Of a stretch of 24,000 nucleotides of DNA, positions 11,366 to 24,000 are shown piece by piece. How positions within the stretch are numbered: the stretch's first letter is position 1; every line of letters starts with the position of its first letter. The notes under the pieces were generated by a model. The model saw only the letters and a program-made list of their open reading frames with translations. It was not told where the DNA came from and did no database searches. The stretch comes from Acidobacteriota bacterium (GTDB lineage Bacteria > Acidobacteriota > Terriglobia > Acidiferrales > UBA7541): contig JAKASX010000002.1 of NCBI GenBank assembly GCA_021818865.1, forward strand, positions 3,209 to 27,208, read 5' to 3'. A program made the position numbers and the translations under genes.

Positions 11366-11389
11366 GGATGGTGCCGGGGGACGGAATCG
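11366..11389. repeat. att core copy A (attL of element 1): truncated tRNA 3' end
   Basis: GGATGGTGCCGGGGGACGGAATCG is identical to 18623-18646. Its reverse complement CGATTCCGTCCCCCGGCACCATCC reads as partial T-loop, T-stem 3' strand, acceptor 3' strand, discriminator A and CCA. Confidence 0.85.
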
Positions 11390-11403
11390 TTTCATTTTCC
11401 CAC

Positions 11404-11440
11404 GTTGAAGCCTCGCAAGTTATTGATTCCTCGTTGCGCC
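11404..11440. promoter_or_regulatory. conserved arm block next to att core (partner at 18661-18697)
   Basis: GTTGAAGCCTCGCAAGTTATTGATTCCTCGTTGCGCC starts 14 nt after the core, as does the partner block. By hand alignment 29/37 positions are identical. CGCAA...TTGCG form an inverted repeat around an invariant TTATTGATTC. Confidence 0.45.
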
Positions 11441-11580
11441 AAATAATCGAAAAACGCCAGAAACGCGGATCGGGGGTACGCGCCAGGTACACGATTGTTG
11501 ATGATCTAGGGGAAGGGCGAGCGAATCCATGCGTCGCGCCGGCCGCCGGCATTTTTGTGTACATCAAAAGCCTGGCTTGC

Positions 11581-11630
11581 GGTGTACACCATCGCGATCG
11601 CGGAGGTGCACACATTTCCCGATCGCCGGA
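11581..11630. repeat. imperfect tandem repeat (24 + 26 nt) in the left arm of element 1
   Basis: GGTGTACACCATCGCGATCGCGGA (11581-11604) is followed by GGTGCACACATTTCCCGATCGCCGGA (11605-11630). A further GTGTACA lies at 11557-11563 and a GGTACAC at 11486-11492. Confidence 0.5.
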
Positions 11631-11669
11631 AGTGCTCGAGCGGCGACGCTTCTTGGAAGGGGCCACAGT

Positions 11670-11789
11670 ATGAGGCCCTGGAAGATCGTCACACTCTTCG
11701 TTCTGGCTCTTTTGGTGGGCGCTCTCTTGTTGAGAAAACTGTTGGGTGGAAAACCGAATTTGTCGGGGCTTCCCGCCCCTTCGAGGTGA
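11670..11789 (+). CDS. possible 39-aa single-pass membrane peptide
   Basis: The ATG at 11670 is preceded by GGAAGGGG. The product is MRPWKIVTLFVLALLVGALLLRKLLGGKPNLSGLPAPSR. It stops 4 nt before the next gene's ATG. It is too short to validate from sequence alone. Confidence 0.3.
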   Translation: MRPWKIVTLFVLALLVGALLLRKLLGGKPNLSGLPAPSR

Positions 11790-11793
11790 CGCG

Positions 11794-12411
11794 ATGGTCC
11801 GCAAAAGCCTGGCTTTTAGAAAATCGGCTGTCCCCTGGCTGGTCGTGGTTTTCCTGTTCGTCGTTCTTTGGCGCGCCTCGGCTCGCCCCGCGTCCGCCGC
11901 TCAGAGCTTTCCTCAGCAACGGTTCGCCGTCGAGTGTCCGCCTAGTTCATTCGGCGTGCCGTGGGGTGTGGGATTCGATGCCGCGACAAATGAATACGTT
12001 CAAAATTTTTGCGCGCAGCCCGATGGCCACATTCTCTTCAACACCCAATCGAATGTGGTGGTGGCCTCCCAAGACTTACTGACACAGAACGGCTCGGTTA
12101 CCAACACCAATTGGGCGACATGCGTGAGCGGCGGCGGCATGTATGAGGCTCACTATTTCACGTTCACTTCCAACACATCGGGCGCTTCGTTGACTCTCGG
12201 GCCGGTGGTTGGGTTTATCTATCACGGAACGACGCGGGAGCTACAGTTAGCCGCTCAAACGGTGAGCGGCACTGGAACAGCCGTTGCCGGTGAAACCGGG
12301 CCGTTTTACTGTGATTCAGGAACCGAAATTTATTACAGCACCACGGCGAGCGGCTTTGTTTCGGGAGAGGATTATTACGATTGGCGAATGACGCTGACGT
12401 GGCTTCGGTGA
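11794..12411 (+). CDS. hypothetical secreted protein (element 1 cargo)
   Basis: The internal ATG at 11794 gives MVRKSLAFRKSAVPWLVVVFLFVVLWRASARPASA/AQ, a signal peptide with an AxA site. The mature part is Thr/Gly/Ser/Asn-rich with 4 Cys. I recognise no family. Confidence 0.6.
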   Translation: MVRKSLAFRKSAVPWLVVVFLFVVLWRASARPASAAQSFPQQRFAVECPPSSFGVPWGVGFDAATNEYVQNFCAQPDGHILFNTQSNVVVASQDLLTQNGSVTNTNWATCVSGGGMYEAHYFTFTSNTSGASLTLGPVVGFIYHGTTRELQLAAQTVSGTGTAVAGETGPFYCDSGTEIYYSTTASGFVSGEDYYDWRMTLTWLR

Positions 12412-12490
12412 ACGGGTGATCTTGTTTGGTTTGCCGGCAAGGGTGTACACGTGCCGTGGACCAGGCGGGGATCGGACCAAAGGATGGTGA

Positions 12491-12733
12491 ATGGTGAAAA
12501 AGGCGAGCAAGGACTACCGAGAGAAAAGCGTGTTCTATTGCGAGTGCGGTGGGTGCCGCGACTGTGGATCGGATGAACCGGCTTTCGCTCATCCTTACAC
12601 TTGCCCGGCTTGCGGCGCACGTCTAAAGGGTGAGCCGGACGATGTGGAGAGTCGGACGGTTGTGGCTTGCTCCGAATGCCCGGCCGAGTGGGTAGTGATT
12701 TCCGATTTCCCGTTGATTCTCGCAAAGCTGTGA
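12491..12733 (+). CDS. small Cys-rich zinc-ribbon-like protein (80 aa)
   Basis: The ATG at 12491 follows AAGGA by about 7 nt. It has eight Cys in CxCxxCxxC (CECGGCRDC), CxxC (CPAC) and CxxC (CSEC) arrangements. Its stop TGA overlaps the next ORF's GTG (GTGA). Confidence 0.55.
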   Translation: MVKKASKDYREKSVFYCECGGCRDCGSDEPAFAHPYTCPACGARLKGEPDDVESRTVVACSECPAEWVVISDFPLILAKL

Positions 12734-13269
12734 CTCCGACGCCCACACTGACGGTGCGTGTCCCACGCCGGCTGCGTTCGCGGGCGTCGAGTGAGAATCT
12801 GCGGGCCGCGATCCGATGGTGGGAAGATTCGGGTGTTTCACTTCCGCCGGTTCGTGAGCCGCGCTTTGCTCGCGTCTGCTTCTCGCTTCGTGGCGTTTCC
12901 CGTGAGAAGCTGGACCGCCTGGCCGCCGGCCAGGGAATGAAAGCTGGCGAGCTACTCTGCCGGTTGTTTGTTTTATGGGCGGCCCGAAAAGGAGAAGAGC
13001 GGGGCCGGCCGCGCGTGGCAGCGCGGCCAGCGTCTGTTCATCCCGCCAGTCCGGTTCAGGCGGGCTGCCGCGCGGCCGAGCAGACGCCATCGCGCGAAGA
13101 ACCCCCTGTGCGCTTGGACTGGCAGTCGGCTGCGTCTCTTCTAAAAAGAGCCGGCGCCCTGGCTGCTCCGGCGCTCGATGGTGAATTCTCTCGTGTCGGT
13201 TCGCTGCTCGTCGAGCGGATTGGGGGCGAGGTTTCCCGTAGCTGGAGATTGCCGTCTTTGGAGGGTTGA
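12730..13269 (+). CDS. hypothetical protein with one or two ribbon-helix-helix-like segments
   Basis: The GTG at 12730 overlaps the upstream stop. PTLTVRVPRRLRSRASSENLRAAIRWW and ARVCFSLRGVSREKLDRLAAGQGMKAGELLCRLFVLWAARK both fit a beta-strand/helix/helix RHH (CopG/Arc-like) pattern by eye. The C-terminal half is Ala/Arg/Pro-rich. Confidence 0.45.
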   Translation: MTPTPTLTVRVPRRLRSRASSENLRAAIRWWEDSGVSLPPVREPRFARVCFSLRGVSREKLDRLAAGQGMKAGELLCRLFVLWAARKGEERGRPRVAARPASVHPASPVQAGCRAAEQTPSREEPPVRLDWQSAASLLKRAGALAAPALDGEFSRVGSLLVERIGGEVSRSWRLPSLEG

Positions 13270-13271
13270 GA

Positions 13272-13415
13272 GCGTCATAATTCGCGTCATAGTTTCTGCG
13301 GAAAGACGGAAAGATGGTGTGGAATTTTCCCTGTTTCGCGGCAAGGTAAAGACGTTCCGGGGATTGTCACGCTGGTGCGGAAAAATTGTCACCGATTCCG
13401 TAGAGGAATTGTCAC
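13272..13415. repeat. repeat-dense intergenic region (iteron/operator-like)
   Basis: GCGTCATA occurs twice (13272-13279, 13284-13291). CGGAAAGA occurs twice in tandem (13299-13314). ATTGTCAC occurs three times (13363-13370, 13385-13392, 13408-13415) at 22-23 bp spacing, and the last copy abuts the GTG start at 13416. Confidence 0.7.
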
Positions 13416-13721
13416 GTGAGTTTGCCTGAGAGAGCGAACGGCCGAAAACGACGGGTGTTGGCGTTCCTCCTGGCCGACCGCCGGCCACGAACCGTGCTCG
13501 AAATTGCCCATGGAAGTGGCTGCGGGGTCTTGCGCGCGGGGGGCCTTTACGGGCTTTTGCACCGTTACGCTCAGTGTGGATTGGTGAGTCGGGAACTGAG
13601 GCAGCGCGAGTCTCGATCCGGCCCGCGCCAGGTGGCCGCTTTTCGCATCACGGCGAAAGGACGTGACCGCCTGGTGTGGTTGCGAGGGCAAGGGGGGAAC
13701 GATGACCACAATTCACTTTGA
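13416..13721 (+). CDS. winged-helix DNA-binding protein (MarR/PadR-like fold)
   Basis: GTG start at 13416. RRVLAFLLADRRPRTVLEIAHGSG...LYGLLHRYAQCGLVSRELRQRE...RQVAAFRITAKGRDRL fits the wHTH pattern of helix, recognition helix and beta-wing. Confidence 0.6.
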   Translation: MSLPERANGRKRRVLAFLLADRRPRTVLEIAHGSGCGVLRAGGLYGLLHRYAQCGLVSRELRQRESRSGPRQVAAFRITAKGRDRLVWLRGQGGNDDHNSL

Positions 13722-14172
13722 GAAGAACAGCCCGAACAGTTCTACACCGGCAGATCGACTTGGCCCGAACTGGGGTGCAGTAACGCGGCGAAACTGCTTC
13801 GCAGTTCTGGCGGCGATCCGCCAGCGTTTTCCGCAATCCGATGATGCCGGGTGTAGTGGAGGTGGGCGCATTTCGGTGGACACGCTCGCGGCCAGCGCCG
13901 GTCTAACACGCGGAGCGGCCCTGAAGTCCTTGCGGGTATGGAGAACTTGGCGCGTTTTGTGGCTTCGTGGCTGCGGCGAGGAAATAGAGTTGCGATTTGA
14001 TCGCCGCGTCGTTGTTGGCTTACTGACAGCCGACAGAGTTGTGCCCAGCGAGGTGGAAATCTTGATAGCGCGGCATCGAGCAAGGAGGGAAGCTATCGCG
14101 CCAAGGCGCTCGGCTTGCTCTCTACCACGGACGAACAGCCTATCGGAGCCCGGGTGTGCCGCGCGTCCCTGA
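13702..14172 (+). CDS. hypothetical HTH-containing protein
   Basis: The ATG at 13702 follows AAGGGGGGAA and overlaps the previous gene's end by 20 nt. ISVDTLAASAGLTRGAALKSLRVW looks like an HTH. The last 80 nt overlap the convergent gene, so the 3' end is uncertain. Confidence 0.45.
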   Translation: MTTIHFEKNSPNSSTPADRLGPNWGAVTRRNCFAVLAAIRQRFPQSDDAGCSGGGRISVDTLAASAGLTRGAALKSLRVWRTWRVLWLRGCGEEIELRFDRRVVVGLLTADRVVPSEVEILIARHRARREAIAPRRSACSLPRTNSLSEPGCAARP

Positions 14173-14695
14173 GCAACCTGCGGGCATGACGAACCGAGCA
14201 ATCTTCCAGCTTGGCGATCAATTTGACGATTTTCGCTTGCGGCACGTTGGCTGCTTTCCATTCCTCCTCTCGTCTCCGAATTTCCGCCAATTTTTTCGAG
14301 CGGTCTTTTGCCGTTCGCCTGCCGACGTGCGGCAATTTTCGGATCGAATTCATATAGGAAGAATAGAGCAGACGGCGTGCCCGGCCGATCAATTCGCGCT
14401 GGAATCGCTCGAGTTCTCGACGTGAAGGCTGATTCGCCGATGCTCCCTCCAGCGTCAAAAATCTTTTCAGCGTTTCGGGCTGGAATTCAGCGAATAGCTG
14501 CTGTAAGAAGCCTTCGAAATTACGCCGGAAAACGTCCGGCTCACCCTCCTCCCCTTGGTAGATATCGAGCGAAACGATTCCCACTTTGATGGTTTTCGCC
14601 TTGGCATTTTTCGGTGTTTTTACGAAGGGTAGAATTGCCTCGGCTACCTTGTAAAGTGCTGATTGGGAATAGGATACGGCATTTTTAGCGGACAT
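14093..14695 (-). CDS. putative regulator with C-terminal HTH (element 1 backbone)
   Basis: The ATG at 14695 (minus strand) is preceded by AAGGGGGG. The product is MSAKNAVSYSQSALYKVAEAIL...AKIVKLIAKLEDCSVRHARRLLRDAR. It is positionally and C-terminally similar to the element 2 gene 19969..20616. The upstream 130 codons of ORF 14093..15085 overlap the divergent gene and hairpin, so I discard them. Confidence 0.55.
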   Translation of the reverse strand: MSAKNAVSYSQSALYKVAEAILPFVKTPKNAKAKTIKVGIVSLDIYQGEEGEPDVFRRNFEGFLQQLFAEFQPETLKRFLTLEGASANQPSRRELERFQRELIGRARRLLYSSYMNSIRKLPHVGRRTAKDRSKKLAEIRRREEEWKAANVPQAKIVKLIAKLEDCSVRHARRLLRDARHTRAPIGCSSVVESKPSALAR

Positions 14696-14754
14696 GATTA
14701 CTACCCCCCTTGATCGCGTCCGCATAAATATAGCACGATTCAAATGGAGAACGA

Positions 14755-14964
14755 ATGCGAATGAGCCGCCACAAACTGACACCGGAAGAGCAGTTGGAAG
14801 GGATTCGGGCCGCCCTGGCTTCGCGTAGACTGCCGAAACATTTCCGCCCGGCGTTGGAGCGGCGGCGGAAAGAACTTTCCGCGCAGATTGAGGCGAAGCG
14901 GAAGGCGGAACGCGAACATCGCCGGAAGCGCAGCAAGGGTTTTCTCGATTGGTTTTTCTCCTGA
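14755..14964 (+). CDS. small basic protein (69 aa), conserved in both elements
   Basis: GGAG lies 7 nt upstream. In MSRHKLTPEEQLEGIRAALASRR versus element 2 MARHVLTTEERLRGVRAAIRKMRR, about half of the first 23 residues are identical by hand. The tail is Arg/Lys-rich. Confidence 0.55.
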   Translation: MRMSRHKLTPEEQLEGIRAALASRRLPKHFRPALERRRKELSAQIEAKRKAEREHRRKRSKGFLDWFFS

Positions 14965-14973
14965 AAAAGGGAA

Positions 14974-15003
14974 GCCCCGCCGGGGCAAATGCCTGGGCGG
15001 GGC
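14974..15003 (+). terminator. GC-rich hairpin after the small basic ORF (no U-tract)
   Basis: GCCCCGCC (14974-14981) pairs with GGCGGGGC (14996-15003). An analogous hairpin follows the homologous ORF in element 2. Confidence 0.35.
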
Positions 15004-15040
15004 CTCGAAACCCTAGAACGCCTTCAAGGGGTTGGTGATC

Positions 15041-15070
15041 TACATGGACATTGTACATGGACATTGTACA
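15041..15070. repeat. 13-bp tandem direct repeat, 2.3 copies, containing TGTACA palindromes
   Basis: TACATGGACATTG TACATGGACATTG TACA. The start codon of the CHC2 gene (15057) lies in copy 2. The equivalent ATG in copy 1 (15044) opens a 10-codon out-of-frame mini-ORF, MDIVHGHCTN. Confidence 0.85.
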
Positions 15071-15611
15071 AATTAACGAGACCAAGATTCAAGGGCCTTC
15101 CCGCTCGCGGCTGGAATTTCTACGGTCGCGCGTTTCGCTCGTTTCCCTGGCCGGCCATTTCACAGAGCTTCGCCGTTGTGGTCCGCGCGCGTGGCGCGGG
15201 CTCTGTCCACTGCATGTTGAAACGAATCCCTCGTTCTTCGTAAATCCAGAAAGCCGGCAATTTTTCTGCTTCGGTTGCGGGGCCGGCGGCGACGTGTATC
15301 GCTTCATCGAAATTCTTTGCGGCTGCCGGTTCCGGGAAGCCGTTCGCCAGGTCGCGCGTCTAGCAAGCGGTAAGACGCTATCCTTGCCGGCGCTGGCGGC
15401 TCGCCAGGGGGATGCTTTAAGCGCAGGAGGTGCAGGAGGATGGAATCCTCCTGCTAGCCTTGCCACGCGGCTGGAAGTGGCAAGGAAGGCCCATCGCCGT
15501 GCGGTCCTGGCCGGTGCGGCCCGCGCGCTACTCGAACGCGAGCGAGAGCTGCCGGCGTCCATGCTGGCCGATCTGCGGGCGGACTCTCTTTTACTCGAGC
15601 CGGAAATTTAA
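15057..15611 (+). CDS. stand-alone DnaG-type CHC2 zinc-finger protein (no TOPRIM/primase catalytic domain)
   Basis: GLCPLHVETNPSFFVNPESRQFFCFGCGAGGDVYRFIE matches the primase zinc-binding signature CPFHxExTPSFxV...FxCFGCGxxGDxxxF. The 184-aa product ends in an Ala/Arg-rich tail with no TOPRIM acidic motifs. Confidence 0.85.
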   Translation: MDIVQINETKIQGPSRSRLEFLRSRVSLVSLAGHFTELRRCGPRAWRGLCPLHVETNPSFFVNPESRQFFCFGCGAGGDVYRFIEILCGCRFREAVRQVARLASGKTLSLPALAARQGDALSAGGAGGWNPPASLATRLEVARKAHRRAVLAGAARALLERERELPASMLADLRADSLLLEPEI

Positions 15612-15619
15612 GTGTTCCG

Positions 15620-16834
15620 ATGGCGACGCAACCACAATTCGACGGCCGATTGATTCCGCCGGCGGGATCGCGTTTTCATTCCTCGCTTGCGAGAGAGATA
15701 GCCGAACGGAGAACGCAGGCAATCGAGAGAACGCGAGGCCGGCTCTTCGACCGCTATCTTTCAAGGCCCACGCCGGAAAAAAAGAAAAAAGGCCGCGATC
15801 CGCGCGAGGCTCTACCGAAGGGCGACGATATAGCGAGCCTGGCCGATACATTTGGAGCAAGCGAGCGCCAGAAACAACAGGCACTCGCCTACGACGAACG
15901 GCCTGGCCTGCACCGGAAGGCAAAGCGCATCGCGTTGTGTGGCAATCTCGGGAAGCGGCAGAACTGCATGGCGGAGGACTCACACAGGTTTTATCGTCCC
16001 TGCCGCTGTGGCTGCCGCTATTGCCCAGAGTGCGGGCCGGCGTGGTTTCGTAAAAAATTCTCTGATTTGCTCTTCGCGCTCCCGCCACTAATCGAGCGTC
16101 TGGTGAGTGCGGGAGAGAAACGCGGCCGGCGTGTAGTGATTGCGAGGTTGGATTTCACCGTGCGGAACACCGGAACGATGCCAACGCCGGAACAGGTCCG
16201 TAAATTTCACCGCAACATTCACCGCTTTTGGAGGGCGGTTGAACGTCGCTTCGGAATTGGACGCGGTGAGTACGGCTGGGCTGGTTGCGACGAGTTCGGC
16301 GGGTCGAATACGAACCTACATCGACATTGCGTCTACATCGGTCCCTTGCTTCCGCAGCACGGGCGGGACGTAAAAAAACTGGGTTACAAGAACCGAAGAA
16401 AAAAAAGCGGCCGCGCCGCCAGTGGATTTTCTAAGCATCTACTCTCAGATATGTGGAGTGAGGTGTGCGGCGAAGAGGCCCACGTTTCGATTAAGCTTTC
16501 AAAGGATTTTCCTTCGGCCCTTGCCCATGCGCTGAAGTATCCAGCAAAATTCCTTTCCCAATCGAATCCCGAACGGCTCGCGGACCTTGAAGCGGCGTTT
16601 CACAAAACGCGCCGTTTTTCGACGGGCGGCGCGTTCTACCGATTGAAGGCGCTGCGTGAGCCTGGCGAAGAATGCGCGCTTGGTTCCTGCCCGATCTGCG
16701 GCGCGCGACTCGCCGAAGTCGTAGAAGGTTGGGTGCCGCGCGCAGTGTTGCTCTCCGAGGGCCGGAGCGACGTGGCAGATGTCCGCCGCGACGTTTCGAG
16801 ACAGAAAATTTTCAGCGGACAAGGCCCGCCATGA
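15620..16834 (+). CDS. HUH-superfamily rolling-circle Rep / relaxase-like initiator (element 1)
   Basis: The motif order is that of single-Tyr RCR initiators. Motif I is ARLDFTV. Motif II is NTNLHRHCVYIG, where the HUH reads H-R-H. Motif III is LAHALKYPAKF (Y-x-x-K). There is an N-terminal Cys/His cluster (CGNLGKRQNC...H...CRCGCRYCPEC) and a C-terminal CPICG. It is homologous at motif level to 21592..23166. Confidence 0.6.
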   Translation: MATQPQFDGRLIPPAGSRFHSSLAREIAERRTQAIERTRGRLFDRYLSRPTPEKKKKGRDPREALPKGDDIASLADTFGASERQKQQALAYDERPGLHRKAKRIALCGNLGKRQNCMAEDSHRFYRPCRCGCRYCPECGPAWFRKKFSDLLFALPPLIERLVSAGEKRGRRVVIARLDFTVRNTGTMPTPEQVRKFHRNIHRFWRAVERRFGIGRGEYGWAGCDEFGGSNTNLHRHCVYIGPLLPQHGRDVKKLGYKNRRKKSGRAASGFSKHLLSDMWSEVCGEEAHVSIKLSKDFPSALAHALKYPAKFLSQSNPERLADLEAAFHKTRRFSTGGAFYRLKALREPGEECALGSCPICGARLAEVVEGWVPRAVLLSEGRSDVADVRRDVSRQKIFSGQGPP

Positions 16835-17076
16835 CCCTTCTGCCGGCAAAACGCGACCGATTCAAAGAAAGCGAGGAAAGGCAAAACGTTACCAGTGTGG
16901 TTGTCGCGCGGATTGAGCCGTGTGCTGGGCACTTTCACGTTCTTTGGAAATGCCCGGATTGCGGTTCTGAGGGTATGGCCAGGTACGACGGCGAGCCGAT
17001 CTATGTCGAATGCGAGAAAACGGGCCGAATTTTCGTCTTGCAGGTGCAGGGGAAACCGCGTGGCCCAGCTGAGTAA
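16831..17076 (+). CDS. small zinc-ribbon-like protein (81 aa)
   Basis: The ATG at 16831 overlaps the Rep stop (ATGA). The product is ...EPCAGHFHVLWKCPDCGSEGMARYDGEPIYVECEKTG.... Confidence 0.45.
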   Translation: MTLLPAKRDRFKESEERQNVTSVVVARIEPCAGHFHVLWKCPDCGSEGMARYDGEPIYVECEKTGRIFVLQVQGKPRGPAE

Positions 17077-17338
17077 TACGTCTAACTGTGTCGCCGCGGA
17101 GGCGACTGACGCCCTGGAACGGCACTATACCGTCGAGGAAGTCGCGGCGGCGTGGCATCTGTCGCGCGATGCGGTGCGCCGCATCTTTGACGGCGAGCCG
17201 GGGGTGTTAGTGATCGAAAACCACTCAGCCTTTCGGAAGCGGCGCTATCGGACGTTCAGAATCCCCGCTTCGGTCGCGCAGCGTGTGCACAGGCGTCTAT
17301 TGACAAAGGGGCAGCCTGTCGGTAGGTTGCCGGCATGA
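17060..17338 (+). CDS. Xis-like / excisionase-family HTH DNA-binding protein (element 1)
   Basis: The GTG at 17060 follows AGGGGA. The product is 92 aa, the same length as the element 2 homologue. ERHYTVEEVAAAWHLSRDAVRRIFDGEPGVLVIENH...RTFRIPASVAQRVHRRL shows 52/72 identical residues with 23651..23929 by hand alignment. Its position is immediately upstream of int. Confidence 0.6.
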   Translation: MAQLSNTSNCVAAEATDALERHYTVEEVAAAWHLSRDAVRRIFDGEPGVLVIENHSAFRKRRYRTFRIPASVAQRVHRRLLTKGQPVGRLPA

Positions 17339-17478
17339 GAAAAAAGAATCAAGCGGCAGTGGCACTCGGACGCAAGGGTGGTTTCGCGAGGGCCAAAAGA
17401 CTCTCGGCAAAGAAACTTTCGGAGATTGGTCGCATGGGCGCTGCTGCCAGGCTGAAAAAGAAAAAACCGCGATGCTGA
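17335..17478 (+). CDS. 47-aa Lys/Gly/Ala-rich basic peptide (below the ORF-track cutoff)
   Basis: The ATG at 17335 overlaps the Xis stop (ATGA). The product is MRKKNQAAVALGRKGGFARAKRLSAKKLSEIGRMGAAARLKKKKPRC. It overlaps the int start by 7 nt. A homologous start (MVKKEKNKNIHAAALGTQGGR) sits at the same position in element 2. Confidence 0.5.
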   Translation: MRKKNQAAVALGRKGGFARAKRLSAKKLSEIGRMGAAARLKKKKPRC

Positions 17479-18599
17479 CGATTTACAGAAGGCATCGGAA
17501 GGCCTGCTCACGGCGAGCGGACGGCCGCGCCTATCGGCGCTGTCAGTGTCCCGTCTGGGTTGACGGCCTGCTTGGCGGTAAGGAAATTCGTCAATCGCTT
17601 CGCCTGCGGGACTGGCAGAAAGCGCAGGCGCGAATCCGAGAGTGGGAAGCGAAAGACCGGATCGAGCAGGATGTGCGGGCGACCGTGGCCGAGGCGTGGA
17701 ATCGGTTCCTTGCCGATGCTGAGGCGAGAAAGCTTCGGGCGGGAACGCTCGGAAAGTACAAGTCCCTTCGCCGACAGATGGAATCTTTTGCTGTGAATCA
17801 GCGGATCAAATTTCTCGATGAATTCAGCCTCGATACTTTGGGTGATTTCCGGGCGGGCATCGGCGGCGCGGCGCTCAACCGGCTTCGGGCTTTCTTCCGT
17901 GTGGCATTTGAGCGGCGCTGGATTCCCGACAATCCCGCGCGCGTGCTGAGGCCCGCCAAGATTCAGCGTAGACAGACAATGCCTTTCTCGGCCGAAGAGA
18001 TGGGAAAGATTCTCGGAGCGGTCGAGGGATACGCCCAGTATGCGGGCCGAGACTACGCGCACCGTCTTCGCTCGTTCGTTCTCCTGTTGCGGTACTCCGG
18101 AATGCGGATCGGAGACGCAGCGCAATTGAAGCCGAATCGAATTGTGAATGGCCGGCTTTTCCTCTACACGCAGAAAACGGGTCAGCCGGTCAACATCCTA
18201 TTGCCGGGTTTCCTCGGGCGCGAGCTTGTAACCTGTCCACGCGGAGCGAATGGGCATTTTTTCTGGAGCGGCGCTTCGACGGTGAAAACGGCTGTGAGTC
18301 TTTGGCAGCGGAGGTTGGCGAGTCTGTTTAGGCGTGCGGAAGTGAAGGGCGGCCACGCGCACCGTTTCCGCGATACGTTCGCGGTGGAATTCCTTATGGC
18401 CGGCGGAACGATGGAGCAGCTATCGGTGCTGCTCGGGCATTCCAGCACGCGCATCACCGAGCGCCACTATGCTCCTTGGGTCGAGGCCAGGCAGCAGCAA
18501 TTGGACTCGTTTTTGAAGCGCACTTGGGCGCGCGATCCGCTCGCTCTCGCTGCGGCGAGGGGTACACGCGGGGTACACGGCGGGAAACATGTCAACTAA
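17472..18599 (+). CDS. int: tyrosine recombinase / phage-type integrase
   Basis: The catalytic signature is present: box I Arg (LLLRYSGMRIGDAAQL), HxxR (GHAHRFRDTFAVEFL) and the C-terminal LLGHSSTRITERHYAPW with the nucleophile Tyr. It has an N-terminal SAM-like core-binding region. It ends 24 nt from att core copy B. Confidence 0.9.
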   Translation: MLTIYRRHRKACSRRADGRAYRRCQCPVWVDGLLGGKEIRQSLRLRDWQKAQARIREWEAKDRIEQDVRATVAEAWNRFLADAEARKLRAGTLGKYKSLRRQMESFAVNQRIKFLDEFSLDTLGDFRAGIGGAALNRLRAFFRVAFERRWIPDNPARVLRPAKIQRRQTMPFSAEEMGKILGAVEGYAQYAGRDYAHRLRSFVLLLRYSGMRIGDAAQLKPNRIVNGRLFLYTQKTGQPVNILLPGFLGRELVTCPRGANGHFFWSGASTVKTAVSLWQRRLASLFRRAEVKGGHAHRFRDTFAVEFLMAGGTMEQLSVLLGHSSTRITERHYAPWVEARQQQLDSFLKRTWARDPLALAAARGTRGVHGGKHVN

Positions 18600-18660: not shown

Positions 18661-18697
18661 GTTGAACGCGCGCAACTTATTGATTCTGCGTTCCGCC
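18661..18697. promoter_or_regulatory. conserved arm block next to att core (partner of 11404-11440)
   Basis: GTTGAACGCGCGCAACTTATTGATTCTGCGTTCCGCC starts 14 nt after the core. 29/37 positions are identical to the partner by hand. Confidence 0.45.
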
Positions 18698-19007: not shown

Positions 19008-19754
19008 ATGCCGAAAGAAGCGCCGAAACCAACCAAGCAACAACCTGACAACGACAAAACCTGCCCCGTCTGTGGGGTATCCGGCTTTTCGAGCGTCCAC
19101 GGCCTGGTAAACCACGTTCGCCGAATCCACGGCGCAGCGGCCCAGCCAACGTCGTTCCCCGCTCGCCCGAGCAATCAGCCCAGGCCGGCCGATACTCGCC
19201 CCGGTGCAACCGCGGTGGCGGCCGAGGAGCCTGAAGCCGGCAAGGTGAGCGGTGAGGCCGAAAGCGAACCCATTCGCTGCCCTGCTTGCGAGAGCACCGT
19301 TTCGGCTGACGGAGCGACGCTCGTGCGGGAGTCGCCGCGCTTGCGCGCGCTGCGAAATTCCGAGGTGGCGCTTTCGAACCTGGAAACGGACAACGTGGAA
19401 TTGCGGGATGAAATCGGAGCGATCAAGCAAGACGCGGTGGACCTGGACGAAAATCCAACGCTCCGGCTCGAGCTCGTCCGCATCGAGAACGAAAAGCTTG
19501 CCGAGCGCATCCGCGCGGCGGGCAAAGAGCCGGTTTGTTCGCCCCGGCGCAGCTACGTTCACGGCCTGTATTTCGACAACGCCCCGGCGGTGGATCTCGC
19601 CATTGCCGATGCCGAGGAAGACCATCAGCGGCTTGCTGAGCAGGCGGAAAGCTTCGGGCAGACGGGCGGCAAGAGCGACGCCGAGGAACAACCGGCGGCG
19701 GAGCGAAGGCAAGCCCGCAGGTTCGCGCTGCGAGGTTTGCGCCGGTCGGCGTGA
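19008..19754 (+). CDS. C2H2-type zinc-finger plus coiled-coil protein (element 2 cargo)
   Basis: CPVCGVSGFSSVHGLVNHVRRIH reads as C-x2-C-x4-F-x5-L-x2-H-x4-H, very close to the classical C2H2 finger. There is a second CPAC pair. The central heptad-like segment is LRALRNSEVALSNLETDNVELRDEIGAIKQD...LELVRIENEKLAERIRAAG, and the tail is acidic. The antisense 332-aa ORF is Arg/Pro/Gly-rich and I reject it. Confidence 0.6.
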   Translation: MPKEAPKPTKQQPDNDKTCPVCGVSGFSSVHGLVNHVRRIHGAAAQPTSFPARPSNQPRPADTRPGATAVAAEEPEAGKVSGEAESEPIRCPACESTVSADGATLVRESPRLRALRNSEVALSNLETDNVELRDEIGAIKQDAVDLDENPTLRLELVRIENEKLAERIRAAGKEPVCSPRRSYVHGLYFDNAPAVDLAIADAEEDHQRLAEQAESFGQTGGKSDAEEQPAAERRQARRFALRGLRRSA

Positions 19755-19824
19755 AGGGTCGCGCCTGCCCGCGTTCGGCGCGGCTGATTGTGCGTCTCCC
19801 CGCGATTTGCTAAATTCGCGCGGA

Positions 19825-19850
19825 GCCTGGGTATCCCCCGGATCCCAGGC
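19825..19850. terminator. strong hairpin between convergent genes
   Basis: GCCTGGGTATCC CCC GGATCCCAGGC forms an 11-bp stem with a 1-nt bulge and a 3-nt loop. There is no clear U-tract. Confidence 0.35.
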
Positions 19851-19968
19851 TCTCGCTCGACGTAACCCCGTCCACGGTCCGCCTCCGGCGCACGGTGCGG
19901 AAACTACGCGCCGCGAGGGGGACCGAATCACTTCGGCTCACGGTGGGGGCATTCGCGCGCGGACGTTG

Positions 19969-20616
19969 CTAAAACCCCCTCAAGTGCTTCTGGCTGATTT
20001 CTGCGCGCTCTGACCGAGACATTGCGAGCAAGTGCTCCTTAAGGGTACCTTGCTTCGCGGCCTCTCTTTTCCGCCGTTCCCGCAAGCGACGTTCTACGGT
20101 ATGAGCCGAAATACCGTGGCTTTTGGCGACCAAGGCGATCGCGTTCCGCCAGGTTGTCCAAGGCGCACCACAGCTCGGTTGCTTTCTCTTCAACTCCACT
20201 TCGTCACAAAAACGATCATCTTCCCTTCGACTGGTTTTCCGGCGTCGGCCTGGTCTTGCCTTTTTTTCGGGAAAGGCGCGCAACAGGGTGAGCAAGGCAG
20301 ATCGGAAGGCAGTTTCGTGCCCGGAAGCTTCGTCCAAGAGCCGCAGGAGGGCTCGGGAATAGAGCAGCTCCTGCTTCACGAGCGGGTCAGTGGAGCAGGC
20401 ATCGAAAAAGTCTCTGAGCAATTGGTACGAGTCGCGGGAATCGGGAGCTGCTATACGCTCAGATTTCGGACATTTGCCTTCTGCCTCTGTTGCGACAGTC
20501 GTTGTCTCGGTAGCCAAAATTACCGCATTTGCCACAGGTGCCCCGCCTATCCCGCTGTGCTTCTTGGGCTTATGGTTCAGCGTTGGTAGCCAAAATTGGG
20601 TACCCTTTTGCCGCAT
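19969..20616 (-). CDS. putative regulator with C-terminal HTH (element 2 backbone)
   Basis: 215-aa ORF. Its C-terminus, WRNAIALVAKSHGISAHTVERRLRERRK, parallels the HTH of 14093..14695. It is divergent from the small basic ORF, as in element 1. The 5' 110 nt contain two GGTAGCCAAAATT repeats (20509-20521, 20585-20597), so the true start may be further downstream. Confidence 0.5.
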   Translation of the reverse strand: MRQKGTQFWLPTLNHKPKKHSGIGGAPVANAVILATETTTVATEAEGKCPKSERIAAPDSRDSYQLLRDFFDACSTDPLVKQELLYSRALLRLLDEASGHETAFRSALLTLLRAFPEKKARPGRRRKTSRREDDRFCDEVELKRKQPSCGAPWTTWRNAIALVAKSHGISAHTVERRLRERRKREAAKQGTLKEHLLAMSRSERAEISQKHLRGF

Positions 20617-20696
20617 TGACTTCCCATGGCGTGAACGGTCATAAGAGTATCACTATGACGAAACAAAAGCGAAAGCGAAAGTAAGGAGAAGACGAC

Positions 20697-20879
20697 ATGG
20701 CGCGACATGTACTGACGACCGAAGAGAGATTGCGGGGAGTGCGCGCCGCGATTCGAAAGATGCGACGCACCAAGCGCGGCCCCGTCTGGCTGATTCCTTC
20801 GATGGAGCGGCACGCCGAAAAATTGCAGGACAGGCTCGACCGCGAACGCCAAACCGGGCAGCCGGGCTCGGGGCGTTAG
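20697..20879 (+). CDS. small basic protein (60 aa), homologue of 14755..14964
   Basis: AAGGAG lies upstream. MARHVLTTEERLRGVRAAIRKMRR is similar to the element 1 protein. It is followed by a hairpin. Confidence 0.55.
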   Translation: MARHVLTTEERLRGVRAAIRKMRRTKRGPVWLIPSMERHAEKLQDRLDRERQTGQPGSGR

Positions 20880-20911
20880 CACCGCTGAAACAGTTCGTTG
20901 AAAAAAACAAA

Positions 20912-20934
20912 GGGCCGCGCTTTGAACGCGGCCC
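20912..20934 (+). terminator. perfect 8-bp GC hairpin after the small basic ORF (no U-tract)
   Basis: GGGCCGCG CTTTGAA CGCGGCCC. It lies inside the 5' part of track ORF 20898.., which argues for a later start of that gene. Confidence 0.4.
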
Positions 20935-20951
20935 GGAAAGGAAGCTCACAC

Positions 20952-21320
20952 GTGCAACAATCATCGCACGAAAATCCACGAAAAGGCAATCCGCCAGGCC
21001 CGGGATCCCCGCAGTCCGATTCGTCTCAGGCAAGCCCGCGCTGGACCGTTCGCGTCCCCGCGTTGCGGCTCGTTGAATCCGCGAACGGCTCTTTGCTTGC
21101 GCACACCGATATCGAGCTTTCCTGTTGCGGCGAAACGCTGCGGGTCTACGGGCTTTCCGTTCTCGAAGGCGATGCAGGCGCCCGCTGGGTGAGCTGGCCG
21201 CAACGCAAGGGCCGAGAAAAATATTTCCCTGTCGTCGCCGCTTCGAAGGGCCTGCGGTCCCTGGTCGAATCCGCGGTCTTGGCGCGGTTCGATGCGCTCA
21301 AAAGCGAAGGCGATTCGTGA
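20952..21320 (+). CDS. SpoVG-like nucleic-acid-binding protein
   Basis: The GTG at 20952 follows GGAAAGGAAG. The core WTVRVPALRLVESANGSLLAHTDIELSCCGETLRVYGLSVLEGDAGARWVSWPQRKGREKYFPVVAASKGLRSLVESAVLARF follows the SpoVG pattern (V-x-V...G-x-L-x-A...I-x-L...V...G...G...V-x-x-P-x-R-K...AVL). The N-terminus is Pro/Ser-rich. Confidence 0.5.
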   Translation: MQQSSHENPRKGNPPGPGSPQSDSSQASPRWTVRVPALRLVESANGSLLAHTDIELSCCGETLRVYGLSVLEGDAGARWVSWPQRKGREKYFPVVAASKGLRSLVESAVLARFDALKSEGDS

Positions 21321-21473
21321 TGAGTTTACGACTTAGGGCCGGCAACGCAGGACTCGCAGACCATGCGACCGGCGACCTAAACGGGCTGCGGGGGCGACCT
21401 TGCAGCTTGGAACGACTCCCAGCCGGGTTGCGGAATGGTCCCCTTTCGCAGCCCGGTAGGGAGGAAAAGAGTC

Positions 21474-21544
21474 TGCGCGGGGTGCGGGGCAGCGCCCCGC
21501 GCATTTCCGGTTTCTGCTGGCGCGCGCGGCGGCCTGGCGCGCGC
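21474..21544. other. structured GC-rich non-coding segment upstream of Rep 2 (candidate origin or regulatory region)
   Basis: There is a 9-bp inverted repeat, TGCGCGGGG (21474-21482) with CCCCGCGCA (21495-21503), with a nested alternative GCGGGGC/GCCCCGC stem. The direct repeat CTGGCGCGCGC occurs at 21517-21527 and 21534-21544. Confidence 0.5.
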
Positions 21545-21591
21545 CCTTTACTTGTCACAAACCGGATGACCCTTCCGGGCGGGGAGGGGGA

Positions 21592-23166
21592 GTGAGCACG
21601 TCGGCCATGCTCGAATCGGATTCCCGCCCGCTTGCGCTGGCGGAGTACTACGAAACTTTCACGGGGCCGGCATCCTGGCGCGAGAAGTTTGGGCAAGGTC
21701 TCAAGGAAGCAGAGCGAGTGCCGGGGGGTTCCGGCATTTATACGCTTTCGAATAACTTTCCTCTCGGTGATCATGTTGCCGCGTCCGCCAAGGAATTTTC
21801 TCCTGCGGAGCGCGCCGCTCCTGCCGCTGCAATCACGTTGGTTGAGCGTACCCTTGTGGAAGGATTTCCCCTTCAAGACCGAGCTTCGATTCAGACTCGG
21901 GTGTATCTGCTTAAGACCAGGTATGGGAAGCCAGGTGCGCGGCCGGAGCGCTGGGTGGACATTCCCCAATCCCTTCTCGACTCGCTGGGTGAATTTGATC
22001 GGCGTTACTGCGAGGCGTTGGTTGCGGAGGGGTTGGAACGTGAGGCGATTCGCGCGGCGTACTGCGGGCGGCTGGCGGTTCTTTGGCAATGCCCCGATGA
22101 CTTCACCGTGCACAAAATGCGCGCCCGGTGTAATGGTCGGACGCATCCTCCGTGCGCTGAAAAAAACTTCGATAGACTTTTTCGTTCTCTGCTTCCACTC
22201 GAAGAGAGTGTGCCGGCCGTTCTGCGTTCGCTTCCTGGATGGGATTGGTACGTGCTCGATTTCTCCTTTCGGCATGATCGAAAAAAAGACCCGACCCACG
22301 AAGAGTTGGTGGGCATGGTGAAAGTAATTGGTAACACCGTTCGGCGCGCCGTCCGTGAAGCGAAGCCGGATTGGTGGCGGGCCGGCCAAGGCTGCCGTCC
22401 GAAGTTGGATGCTGTGGGGAAACCGGTGCGTTCCCCGGACGGCTGGCCTATCGGTATCGCGCGCGATGGCAGTGAGCGAAGCCTTCCCGGCTGGGAATAC
22501 ATCTTTCTGCCGGAGCATCCTAGCCCGGACAATAAAGCGCGGAAGCAGGGTTTTCATGGCGCGATAAAAACGATTCCCGCGCGCTGGGTGTTGCGCTTTG
22601 GATTTGAGTTCGTTCGCGTGACCGAATTCGGGCGCGACAACACGAACGCTCACTTCCACGGCGCGTTTTTCGGGCCGCCGCTCGATTACGGGTATGACGA
22701 ACGTAAGTTGCGGGAAACTGGTGAGCTGAATTGTTGGGGTCGGCTGACTGCCATTTTCAAGCAGGAATCGCGGCGGATTTTGGGGCAGGAATCCTACACG
22801 GTGTTTTTCGAGCCTGCGCGCCAAGGTTTCCGATCGGTGCTGGCTCACGCGCTCAAATACACGAAGAAAATTCCTCGGACGACACCGGAGGGTTTGGCGC
22901 ATTTGGCGAAGGTTCTTCATGGGACGCGCCGCGTGGCGATCCTAGGCGCGCACTACGGCGTGTCGTTCTCCAAGCCATCCAATCTGAAGTGCTCGCGCTG
23001 CGGTGGTCCGCTAGCTCGCGTGGACGGATTGGGACCGGTGCCAATCGAAGAGGTGGCCGATCTGCCGGACGCACTCGAAGAGAAAATTTCCGTTCCTTCC
23101 GAGGCCGAAACAGAATCCGGCGCGGATGGTTTCTTGAAAGAGGCGGAGTGGGAGTGCGGCCCGTGA
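21592..23166 (+). CDS. HUH-superfamily rolling-circle Rep / relaxase-like initiator (element 2)
   Basis: The GTG at 21592 follows GGGGAGGGGGA. Motif I is YVLDFSF. Motif II is NTNAHFHGAFFG, a canonical H-F-H. Motif III is LAHALKYTKKI. There is an N-terminal C/H cluster (CGRLAVLWQC...H...C...PPC) and a C-terminal CSRCGG. It is collinear with 15620..16834 apart from an insertion between motifs I and II. Confidence 0.65.
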   Translation: MSTSAMLESDSRPLALAEYYETFTGPASWREKFGQGLKEAERVPGGSGIYTLSNNFPLGDHVAASAKEFSPAERAAPAAAITLVERTLVEGFPLQDRASIQTRVYLLKTRYGKPGARPERWVDIPQSLLDSLGEFDRRYCEALVAEGLEREAIRAAYCGRLAVLWQCPDDFTVHKMRARCNGRTHPPCAEKNFDRLFRSLLPLEESVPAVLRSLPGWDWYVLDFSFRHDRKKDPTHEELVGMVKVIGNTVRRAVREAKPDWWRAGQGCRPKLDAVGKPVRSPDGWPIGIARDGSERSLPGWEYIFLPEHPSPDNKARKQGFHGAIKTIPARWVLRFGFEFVRVTEFGRDNTNAHFHGAFFGPPLDYGYDERKLRETGELNCWGRLTAIFKQESRRILGQESYTVFFEPARQGFRSVLAHALKYTKKIPRTTPEGLAHLAKVLHGTRRVAILGAHYGVSFSKPSNLKCSRCGGPLARVDGLGPVPIEEVADLPDALEEKISVPSEAETESGADGFLKEAEWECGP

Positions 23167-23196
23167 AACCGCTGACGGAAAGCCAGGCGCGATCCC

Positions 23197-23439
23197 GTGA
23201 GTGTGCAAAAAAACAAACGCTGCCGGTGTCGCTGCGGCGGAGTGCTTCACGGCGCTGGAAGGGTTACGACGGACGCGCCGAGGTGGGAATTCGAACTTTT
23301 GCCGGAATTAGACCCGCATCGGCTCTCGTCGGCGACGGGAAACGGCCGTGGAAAAGGGGAAATGGTTGGGGAGCCGGCCTGGCGCTCTCTTCTACAACCT
23401 AACTTTTGCGATGAACGCGACGCAACCCACGCTTTTTGA
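23197..23439 (+). CDS. hypothetical small protein (frame ambiguous)
   Basis: GTG start. The product is MSVQKNKRCRCRCGG...WEFELLPELDPHRL.... Its stop overlaps the next ORF's TTG (TTGA). The alternative frame 23163..23402 (GTGA overlap with the Rep stop) is more Arg/Gly/Ser-biased. My hand GC3 counts are about equal (about 58-59 percent), so the choice is weak. Confidence 0.3.
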   Translation: MSVQKNKRCRCRCGGVLHGAGRVTTDAPRWEFELLPELDPHRLSSATGNGRGKGEMVGEPAWRSLLQPNFCDERDATHAF

Positions 23440-23654
23440 TTGCACCGCGGTGGGGCATGCGCGTTAATCGCTCCACCGACCGCCGTTGGGATTGGTGGCG
23501 CGCGAAGCGGCTTGGTTGGCCGGAGGGATACCGCATCCTGCTGCGGATCGAGGCGCGGTTTTGGGAACGGGGTGAGCGCACTCCTGAAGTGGAGGCGATT
23601 CTCGCTGGTTGTCGGCGCGCGGTGTTGGTCGAGTTGGGGTATCGGGTGAAATGA
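23436..23654 (+). CDS. small Trp/Arg-rich hypothetical protein
   Basis: The start is TTG 23436 or ATG 23457. The product is MRVNRSTDRRWDWWRAKRLGWPEGYRILLRIEARFWERGERTPEVEAILAGCRRAVLVELGYRVK. Its stop overlaps the Xis-like ATG (ATGA). Confidence 0.45.
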   Translation: MIAPRWGMRVNRSTDRRWDWWRAKRLGWPEGYRILLRIEARFWERGERTPEVEAILAGCRRAVLVELGYRVK

Positions 23655-23929
23655 TGGGAGCTTCCGTCCAAAGCGTTACGCCCGAATCGTTGGGGGCGAT
23701 GGAACGACATTACACGCCCGAAGAGGTGGCCGAGGCGTGGGGCGTTTCGGCAGACACGGTGCGGCGTATCTTCGATGGCGAGGCGGGCGTGTTGGTGATC
23801 GAGAATCATCGGGCCGGGAGCAGGCGGCGGCACCGCACGTTGCGGATTCCCGCATCCGTGGTGGACCGGGTGCATCGGCGGCACTTGACAAAGCCGATGC
23901 CTGGCGGCAGGCTCACGGGCGGGAGGTAA
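23651..23929 (+). CDS. Xis-like / excisionase-family HTH DNA-binding protein (element 2)
   Basis: MERHYTPEEVAEAWGVSADTVRRIFDGEAGVLVIENH...RTLRIPASVVDRVHRRHL shows 52/72 identical residues with the element 1 protein by hand alignment. The product is 92 aa. Confidence 0.6.
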   Translation: MMGASVQSVTPESLGAMERHYTPEEVAEAWGVSADTVRRIFDGEAGVLVIENHRAGSRRRHRTLRIPASVVDRVHRRHLTKPMPGGRLTGGR

Positions 23930-23936
23930 TGCGAGT

Positions 23937-24000
23937 ATGGTGAAAAAGGAGAAAAACAAGAACATTCACGCGGCGGCGCTCGGGACCCAGGGCGGGCGCG
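23937..24000 (+). CDS. Lys/Gly-rich basic peptide, 5' part (truncated by the window end)
   Basis: The ATG at 23937 gives MVKKEKNKNIHAAALGTQGGR.... It has the same position and the same AAxxLGxxGG motif as 17335..17478. Confidence 0.4.
   Translation, partial: MVKKEKNKNIHAAALGTQGGR

Follow-up and report, generated by a model that had tools for sequence, protein, structure and literature searches.

What kind of mobile DNA is stacked behind a 24-nt direct repeat in the chromosome of an acidobacterium, and does it represent one element or several? The question is raised by a 24,000-nt stretch (the window) of contig JAKASX010000002.1 (assembly GCA_021818865.1, positions 3,209 to 27,208). The host is a Terriglobia-class acidobacterium from soil. 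Acidobacteriota are among the most abundant soil bacteria. To our knowledge, few mobile elements have been described from this phylum, and genetic tools are scarce. The locus harbors two distinct elements in tandem, element 1 (7,257 bp) and element 2 (6,624 bp), each with intact genes for an integrase and a replication protein (Rep), and both are absent from a relative. They are probably two independent site-specific integrative elements, inserted successively in the 3' end of a tRNA-Phe(GAA) gene and following a proposed excision-replication cycle. Tandem stacking itself is ordinary and has been documented for mobilizable and conjugative elements (PMC5704250) and for tycheposons (10.1101/2020.12.28.424599). 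The novelty lies in the element family and its Rep.

Two elements at one tRNA-Phe gene

The 24-mer GGATGGTGCCGGGGGACGGAATCG occurs exactly twice in the window, in direct orientation on the plus strand, at 11366-11389 (core copy A, the left junction of element 1) and 18623-18646 (core copy B, where elements 1 and 2 meet), at the very positions given by a first-pass annotation made from the letters of the window. The chance expectation for a match in shuffled sequence is 0. Gap-free extension lengthens the copies to 28 nt with one mismatch (11362-11389 / 18619-18646). The repeat had been read as the 3' end of a minus-strand tRNA. This applies to 21 of the 24 nt, TGGTGCCGGGGGACGGAATCG, located at 11369-11389 in copy A and common to all three cores of the locus. 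The reverse complement of these 21 nt is the T-loop-to-CCA end of tRNA-Phe(GAA). ARAGORN detected no tRNA in the window, so that core copies A and B represent tRNA fragments.

An exact search with the integrase protein led to the ENA contig k141_201475 (locus L001), in which window positions 10689-24000 are matched at 100% identity. The contig continues 4.6 kb beyond the window (window position = L001 position + 10688), which makes 28.6 kb of DNA available at the locus. Past the window end, it carries a second integrase gene, a third core (copy C) and an intact minus-strand tRNA-Phe(GAA) containing that core, all of which the first-pass annotation had predicted. The tRNA gene (L001 14562-14636, window-equivalent 25250-25324, minus strand) is the expected tRNA ending in ...CGATTCCGTCCCCCGGCACCA. 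The distance from the end of the integrase gene to the next core is 22-23 nt in both cases. Tyrosine integrase 1 (375 aa; 17472..18599, plus strand) stands before copy B as described earlier, at a gap of 23 nt rather than 24 nt, and copy C starts 22 nt after the stop of integrase 2 (376 aa; window-equivalent 24098-25228, plus strand, on L001 beyond the window). The locus thus presents the features of tRNA-targeting integrative elements: flanking direct repeats of a tRNA 3' end, an intact tRNA at one end and an integrase beside an attachment (att) copy. The same DNA is present in the assemblies ERZ27237336 (99.9% identity), DRR872537 and SRR13205817 (both 100%). The tandem is not an assembly chimera, because assemblies made independently from several samples have the identical arrangement.

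Gene calls and pairwise comparison confirmed a recurrent gene order to the right of each core. From left to right, both elements encode cargo, a divergent protein of ~200 aa and a small basic protein, followed by a hairpin, a variable slot of one or two genes and Rep. One or two small open reading frames (ORFs), a 92-aa excisionase-like protein, a Lys/Gly/Ala-rich peptide of ~50 aa, the integrase and the core complete the order. The integrases are 74% identical, the Rep proteins 33% over two stretches. Protein pairs other than the integrases, excisionase-like proteins, peptides, small basic proteins and Rep are unrelated between the elements, including the cargo, in line with the first description. 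An accretion of two lineages, already favored over a recent duplication at that stage, is supported by the difference between integrase and Rep identities and by the unrelated cargo. A second element of the same integration specificity would have entered an att copy flanking the resident element.

Chromosomal genes for a CAAX protease, an M28 peptidase and a 1150-aa sortilin/BNR protein are located left of core A. To the right of tRNA-Phe, genes for a GNAT acetyltransferase and FtsK follow, the latter being a host gene and the only FtsK at the locus. Both the flanking genes and the element Rep have relatives in Acidobacteriota / Terriglobia genome bins. Via GNAT homologues, the related genome GCA_021812285.1 was reached (L037; L038 comes from a sister sample). 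On the left, its flank is 92% identical as far as window position 11379, on the FtsK side 86%. L037 possesses the same tRNA-Phe with an identical core, and neither element 1 nor element 2 is present. Between a degenerate core GGATGGATAGTGCCGGGG and tRNA-Phe, it carries an unrelated, integrase-less 1.8-kb stretch (L037 2445-4269). Since only this unrelated insert occupies the site, the two elements are not fixed at the locus, and the site is a recurrent insertion point. Universal presence of the 11.4-18.6 kb segment in relatives would have spoken against a mobile element; it is absent from L037 and L038 at the same tRNA-Phe.

Inspection of the reading frame at 11316..11343 (plus strand) revealed a probable 3'-terminal relic of another, third integrase gene that has decayed. 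The frame reads ..CGVHGGHSW* compared with ..RGVHGGKHVN* in integrase 1, its stop lies 22 nt before core A, and the relic is also present in L037. The sequence ACACGG(A/C)G(G/A)G is found ~45 nt left of all three cores. At copies B and C, this sequence codes for the C-terminus of the integrase; no integrase gene precedes core A. The relic probably stems from an older, third element that has decayed.

An unclassified Rep family

Rep1 (404 aa; 15620..16834, plus strand) is a predicted HUH rolling-circle-type initiator with the motifs RLDFT (I), NLHRH (II) and ALKYPAK (III) and two Cys pairs. Rep2 (524 aa; 21592..23166, plus strand) contains the same three motifs. The claim that the two proteins share HUH motifs at low overall similarity was thus borne out, and an initiator-like predicted fold was added to it. 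In an alignment of 25 sequences, the motifs appear as KLDFT, NTNLHxH and ALKYxxK, with H234, H236, Y307 and K310 invariant and both Cys pairs conserved. An AlphaFold model (predicted local distance difference test score of 84.7) was compared with predicted structures using Foldseek. Matches were Microviridae replication initiators, phage GpA and HRPV-1 ORF1, with E values down to 3e-8 and a probability of 1.0. The three HUH motifs are accordingly accompanied by an HUH fold in the predicted model.

Profile searches of both proteins had been proposed in the first-pass annotation. No model of Pfam, NCBIfam or PHROG reached its curated threshold; weak matches to Rep_1 and REP_ORF2-G2P were obtained, and a minority of the homologues carry a precomputed PF01446 (Rep_1) match. 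Homologues of Rep1 comprise 113 word-indexed proteins, all unnamed. An exhaustive profile search with Rep1 yielded 956 clusters (50% identity) at E <= 1e-3 and 416 at E <= 1e-10. Nearly all of these ~950 clusters belong to Acidobacteriota. Among the 2.9 million contigs of IMG/VR, only two Rep relatives were found. Judged by its motifs and modeled fold, Rep appears to be an HUH initiator of an uncurated family. With ~950 Rep clusters lacking a Pfam, NCBIfam or PHROG model, such elements currently escape annotation and mobile-element surveys.

The recombination module

Elements 1 and 2 have a module in common that comprises the excisionase-like protein, the Lys/Gly-rich peptide, the integrase, the att core and an arm with an IHF-like site. 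Integrase 1 matches PF00589 with 40 bits (gathering cutoff 27.1) and PHROG 1 at 6.8e-33. By inspection, the catalytic residues R, K, HxxR, H and Y were recognized in both integrases (SGMRIGD, QKTGQ, HAHRFRDT, LGHSS, ERHY). The integrase family is large and acidobacterial, with more than 2,600 matches at E <= 1e-40.

The excisionase-like proteins 1 (92 aa; 17060..17338, plus strand) and 2 (92 aa; 23651..23929, plus strand) are 63% identical over 87 aa. Their similarity had been noted before, with a hand count of 52/72 aligned residues that is replaced by this value. Protein 1 was classified as a winged-helix protein on its position, weak helix-turn-helix (HTH) matches and a model; protein 2 has weak HTH_17 and HTH_23 matches. 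The model, of moderate confidence, displays a beta-alpha-alpha-beta-beta-alpha winged-helix topology. Its comparison with PDB structures gave weak winged-helix matches only, including BldC, RacA and a phage P2 DNA-binding protein. BLASTP against the HTH_17-annotated neighbors in loci L023 and L017 produced no alignment. A role as excisionase is suggested by the position.

A conserved gene between those of the excisionase-like protein and the integrase encodes the 47-aa Lys/Gly/Ala-rich peptide of element 1 (17335..17478, plus strand). The corresponding peptide of element 2, recognized by similarity, starts at 23937 (23937..24000, plus strand) and is cut by the window end; the two are 67% identical. 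The peptide belongs to no known family and has one weak match (E = 0.0046) to a PHROG of unknown function. Peptides of this kind (47-53 aa, ..LGxxGGxARAxxLSxxxLSEIGxxGAAAR..) were also observed at L009 11437-11574 and L049 3626-3769. The integrase of L049 is 68% identical and is preceded by 98-aa and 47-aa ORFs in the same positions, and no Rep is encoded upstream. The recombination module is exchangeable.

Arm blocks of 37 nt begin 15 nt to the right of cores A and B, at 11404..11440 in element 1 and 18661..18697 in element 2 (both plus strand), and are 81% identical. The IHF consensus WATCAANNNNTTR has two matches in the 24-kb window compared with 0.35 expected. Both (11416-11428 and 18673-18685, minus strand) lie inside the conserved block at homologous positions, 27 nt right of the cores.

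Related elements in other genomes

A scan of one genome per species identified 20 loci with the Rep family. Eighteen are labeled as Acidobacteriota, Terriglobia or similar, and elements 1 and 2 belong to a recurrent acidobacterial family. The other two, L005 (DATLSU010000023.1) and L004 (DASPVZ010000052.1), carry the labels 'Patescibacteria group' and Candidatus Cybelea (phylum Vulcanimicrobiota), in this order; they may be due to binning errors or to real spread. Of the 20 loci, 14 have a tRNA gene no more than a few kb from rep, most often 1.4-2.8 kb downstream and on the opposite strand. Six of these tRNAs are tRNA-Met, the others tRNA-Arg, tRNA-Lys or tRNA-Pro. Direct repeats of tRNA 3' ends delimit family elements of 6.9-12.6 kb. 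All eight delimited elements have an integrase ORF at the right-hand end. In tblastn searches with the integrases of elements 1 and 2, only a few of the 20 loci gave an integrase match. Three att copies in L017 define a 2.5-kb integrase-less module and a complete 9.1-kb element, so that accretion recurs in the family.

Integrase-less inserts bounded by att copies are thus known from tRNA-Phe (L037 2445-4269, 1.8 kb) and tRNA-Met (L017 902-3473, 2.5 kb). They resemble cis-mobilizable remnants. The L017 insert encodes an excisionase-like HTH protein and two proteins of ~245 aa without assigned function.

The variable slot before rep1 encodes a DnaG-type CHC2 zinc-finger protein (184 aa; 15057..15611, plus strand; 1.8e-21) without a primase catalytic domain. 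The earlier designation of this slot as a small nucleic-acid-binding protein can be made precise for element 1; no family could be detected for the counterpart in element 2. L007, L017 and L020 encode the zinc finger as a fusion with Rep. In L025, a DnaB N-terminal-domain protein takes the place of the DnaG zinc finger in the slot before rep (2635-3153). Both domains are part of the primase-helicase interface.

Candidate replication origin

A motif search in the relatives revealed clusters of GCGAAGC upstream of rep. Seven loci align to a structure of ~113 nt with a closing stem, one long and two short hairpins and an invariant ATAGCC end. This three-way junction is placed immediately upstream of rep, either within the zinc-finger coding region or behind it, and two of its hairpins are capped by C-GAA-G triloops. 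In the alignment, 90% of the cells are paired, compared with 32-50% when the partners are slid. Covariation comprises 13 pairs changed on both sides, a value reached in 0 of 500 shuffles. RNAalifold predicts the same fold. A covariance model detected the structure in L008 (91 bits) and, more weakly, in L017, L024, L042, L018 and L015. All matches are on the rep strand and upstream of rep, and the control loci gave none. The structured element was located at L005 9768-9879, L009 9504-9613, L013 9500-9612, L023 2441-2552, L003 9543-9655, L011 9639-9751, L007 9620-9732 and L008 9489-9601. Rfam contains no family for it.

Mini-hairpins of the type GCGNAGC are found in the primase-dependent complementary-strand origins of the microviruses G4, St-1 and alpha3 and in RSF1010 ssiA (PMC13037366). 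By this precedent, and because a primase zinc finger is encoded next to it, the structured element of the relatives is suggested to be a candidate primase-dependent single-strand origin. The combination of an HUH Rep, a primase zinc finger and mini-hairpin DNA in the relatives leads to a testable idea on the priming of the conversion from single-stranded to double-stranded DNA.

In element 1, a 10-bp hairpin with a GGA triloop (15432..15454; z = -1.9) is situated ~170 nt upstream of rep1 and is flanked by GGGGGATGC and TAGCC. It is possibly a reduced version of the structured element, a resemblance without statistical support. In element 2, two G+C hairpins (21474-21503 and 21519-21545) are overlapped by the second slot ORF (91 aa) and followed by CTTTACTTGT, as in L014. 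The motif CTTGAT at ~14706 was considered as a pC194-like nick site and was rejected as too short to be meaningful.

Proposed life cycle and alternative explanations

In the proposed cycle, de-repression would switch on the rep-xis-int genes. Two of the three identical 21-nt cores would be recombined by the integrase together with the excisionase-like protein, probably assisted by a host bending protein that binds the conserved IHF-like site. A circle consisting of element 1, element 2 or the 13.9-kb composite would be released, leaving the tRNA intact. Rep would nick an origin near its own gene and start rolling-circle replication. The primase-type zinc finger, or the DnaB N-terminal-domain protein in relatives, may help to recruit the host primase for the conversion of the single strand. 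Finally, the integrase would re-insert the circle in tRNA-Phe of the same or a new cell.

The gene order of the elements matches that of pSAM2, in which rep, xis and int form an operon and the repressor KorSA controls the small activator Pra of that operon (PMC2440964). A regulation of the pSAM2 kind, like the excision, rolling-circle replication and zinc-finger assistance, is inferred for the elements described here. Like the ~11-kb pSAM2 and its kind, the actinomycete integrative and conjugative elements (AICE), they are inserted in tRNA 3' ends by a tyrosine integrase. The Rep of pSAM2 is a rolling-circle protein of the pC194 / phiX174 kind, and rep, xis and int are co-oriented and end at the att site. 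The present order corresponds to it, with a minus-strand candidate regulator, a plus-strand small basic protein and later genes ending in rep, the excisionase-like gene, int and att. Differences are the absence of an FtsK/SpoIIIE-type Tra, of Spd proteins and of a Nudix immunity gene, a candidate regulator that is not detectably GntR-like, and a Rep for which Pfam and NCBIfam gave no RepSA-like family. Parts not present in pSAM2 are the CHC2 zinc finger and the Lys/Gly-rich peptide, and the host belongs to Acidobacteriota, not Actinomycetota.

Several results weigh against such a cycle. Rep1 attains 18.9 bits with Pfam Rep_1 (PF01446), below the gathering threshold of 33.2, and Rep2 has no match. 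A sequence-profile search of the Rep alignment against all PDB chains returned nothing at E <= 10, and Foldseek of the Rep model against the PDB nothing significant, with HUH proteins only among the weak matches. No match to Rep1 was obtained by tblastn in PLSDB plasmids and INPHARED phages. The excisionase and the regulators were assigned tentatively on position, weak HTH matches and a model of moderate confidence. The covariance model of the structured element, even when run with filters off, had no significant match in the window, and the origin is not pinned down in either of the two elements. The element-size contigs L023, L024 and L025 show no terminal overlap, and L024 starts at an att repeat. 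Neither an empty site in the same strain nor a circular junction nor a free replicon was observed in the assemblies. The cycle is also incomplete without a transfer mechanism, and neither transfer nor virion genes were found. Comparison of the element proteins with Pfam, PHROGs, NCBIfam and PADLOC gave no match to capsid, terminase, type IV secretion system, coupling-protein, helicase, conjugation, packaging or defense functions. For the first five of these, the first-pass annotation had come to the same result.

The strongest alternative, less probable but to be taken seriously, interprets the elements as integrative mobilizable elements. Rep would act mainly as a relaxase nicking an oriT, a co-resident conjugative element would supply the mating pore, and replication would be secondary. 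This view overlaps with the proposed cycle, and the two are not mutually exclusive. Streptococcal integrative mobilizable elements (with Rep_2, PHA00330, Viral_Rep or MobT relaxases) are likewise small, have tyrosine integrases acting at gene 3' ends and a single protein resembling a rolling-circle initiator, and frequently accrete in tandem with related or decayed elements at one att site (PMC5704250). Relaxases akin to such initiators, including the microvirus-type PHA00330, are present in 118 of 144 streptococcal elements, and 35 of these 118 have no coupling protein (PMC5704250). The predicted Rep fold matches microvirus initiators, and an own integration/excision module without mating-pore or transfer genes fits the pattern. 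Mobilization in streptococci is demonstrated or plausible via known helper conjugative elements, whereas no helper is known here and no conjugative system was identified in the 28.6 kb available. The Rep family and the phylum differ, neither an oriT nor a relaxosome accessory protein was recognized, and a primase-type zinc finger beside or fused to Rep favors replication over transfer. By analogy, the closest counterparts appear to be pSAM2-type elements minus the transfer gene and the streptococcal mobilizable elements with Rep-type relaxases.

A more far-reaching view, considered unlikely, sees in the family a distinct, phylum-restricted class of integrative single-stranded DNA replicons. 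It would combine the unclassified HUH Rep with an element-encoded primosome fragment (the DnaG-type zinc-binding domain, sometimes fused to Rep, and the DnaB N-terminal domain in one relative) and a GCGAAGC three-way-junction origin, and spread without conjugation or recognizable virions. If so, the element would bring its own specificity subunit for the host primase, which the microvirus G4 accomplishes with a DNA structure alone. It might spread in vesicles, for example, or be a virus whose structural proteins are novel.

Minimal phage satellites comparable to phage-inducible chromosomal islands, whose excision and replication a helper phage would induce and which would be packaged in its capsids, are quite improbable. 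The small size, the integrase, the divergent regulators, the replication module and many small ORFs without known function agree with a satellite. Prochlorococcus tycheposons, by which tRNA-targeting replicative elements are shown to be capable of a satellite-like nature, provide a precedent with a tyrosine recombinase, tRNA targets and replication genes, several elements side by side with only partial tRNA copies between them, and decayed integrase relics nearby (10.1101/2020.12.28.424599). However, their replication modules are primases, polymerases and helicases, not an HUH Rep, and they are typically larger (~10-20 kb in the comparison of that paper with phage-inducible chromosomal islands). 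Pfam and PHROG comparisons of the elements detected no small terminase, capsid, capsid-remodelling or interference gene; matches to PHROGs were confined to the integrase, the zinc finger and the weak one of the peptide. The scarcity of Rep relatives in IMG/VR and a cargo that is not conserved between the elements also speak against satellites.

Integrated genomes of an unrecognized single-stranded DNA virus, microvirus- or pleolipovirus-like with structural proteins too divergent for detection, are still harder to reconcile with the data and highly improbable. The best structural matches of Rep, which has the three HUH motifs and the predicted fold of Microviridae (gpA / VP4), pleolipovirus (HRPV-1 ORF1) and Rep_1 initiators, would suit such a virus, as would the genome size and two element 1 products, a hydrophobic peptide of 39 aa and a 205-aa protein that has a hydrophobic segment at its N-terminus. 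Rep differs from those initiators in falling below every curated threshold, in its additional conserved Cys pairs and in being linked or fused to a primase-type zinc finger with no virion gene alongside. Beyond Rep, the integrase and a small conserved set, no protein is common to both elements or to the family, which leaves no candidate for a conserved capsid or spike. Element 2 has a single cargo protein of 248 aa, and Pfam and PHROG comparisons gave no major capsid protein (F) or Zot-type morphogenesis ATPase, as would be expected of a Microviridae or Inoviridae prophage, nor was a conserved ORF of suitable size found.

An in-situ segmental duplication of one ancestral element with later divergence, which would account for the same gene order and the three identical cores, is the least credible explanation, because Rep is far more divergent than the integrases, cargo and regulators are unrelated, and Rep1 has 59%-identical relatives in other genomes, much closer than Rep2.

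Two successive, independent insertions of integrative elements thus account best for the locus, and no named element family matched, as had been stated at the outset. A compact, apparently self-contained cassette for integration and replication is a realistic starting point for integrative or shuttle vectors. Its value as a vector includes a defined 21-nt target in tRNA-Phe, and relatives target tRNA-Met, tRNA-Arg, tRNA-Lys and tRNA-Pro.

Cargo, regulators and minor features

The cargo of element 1 consists of five plus-strand genes (11794..14172), none similar to anything in element 2. They encode the 205-aa protein with the N-terminal hydrophobic segment (11794-12411), an 80-aa zinc ribbon (12491-12733), a 179-aa protein (12730-13269), a 101-aa PadR-like protein with a weak match (13416-13721) and a 156-aa protein (13702-14172). 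The cargo protein of element 2 (248 aa; 19008..19754, plus strand) has a zinc-finger-like N-terminus and a coiled-coil-like remainder, and a 47-aa ORF is located at 18774-18917 (plus strand). PADLOC returned nothing for the cargo proteins.

The divergent genes encode candidate regulators of 200 aa in element 1 (14093..14695, minus strand) and 215 aa in element 2 (19969..20616, minus strand). The former is 31% identical to its positional counterpart in L024, the latter weakly similar to counterparts in L009, L013 and L023. Of the earlier label of minus-strand HTH regulators, the position and this weak similarity remain; the proteins have no HTH or other family match. The small basic proteins 1 (69 aa; 14755..14964, plus strand) and 2 (60 aa; 20697..20879, plus strand) share 36% identity. 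The protein is a hallmark of the element family and a candidate activator.

A G+C-rich hairpin with A-rich flanks (14974..15003; z = -2.8) directly follows small basic gene 1 on its 3' side, and another (20912..20934; z = -3.4) is found 3' of gene 2. Five related elements (L005, L009, L011, L013 and L024) also have a hairpin at this position; the stem sequence varies from element to element, and the flanks are A-rich on both sides. It reads as an intrinsic terminator on the minus strand, where no gene runs into it. An exact 13-nt tandem repeat, TACATGGACATTG, is present in 2.3 copies at 15041-15070 and overlaps the start of the zinc-finger gene. It could be an iteron-like or operator-like site.

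In element 2, the variable slot contains two ORFs of 122 aa and 91 aa (20952..21595, plus strand) without family match. A SpoVG-like nature of the 122-aa protein was considered, found no support in Pfam and PDB sequence searches and was dropped. Downstream of rep1, a small Cys-rich protein of 81 aa is encoded (16831..17076, plus strand). Two small ORFs of 79 aa and 65 aa follow rep2 (23163..23654, plus strand). The 65-aa ORF (23457-23654) has a positional equivalent of 66% identity in L005 (11515-11673). Because the Rep of L005 is of the Rep1 type, this is another sign of module shuffling.

Other comparisons at the insertion site were set aside. The relative L026 from the Joint Genome Institute (89.5% nucleotide identity) was rejected as empty-site evidence, since its synteny ends right after the 1150-aa gene and no tRNA is located within 10 kb. 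The GNAT homologues P0118 and P0132 stand in non-syntenic contexts. An exact look-up of the 1150-aa protein of the left flank gave no record, probably owing to the chosen start codon. In L037, an extra 4.4 kb with genes for a GH116 glycosidase and CobW (L037 4405-8780, compared with window-equivalent 25384-25499) separates tRNA-Phe from the GNAT gene and is an indel on the host side of the tRNA.

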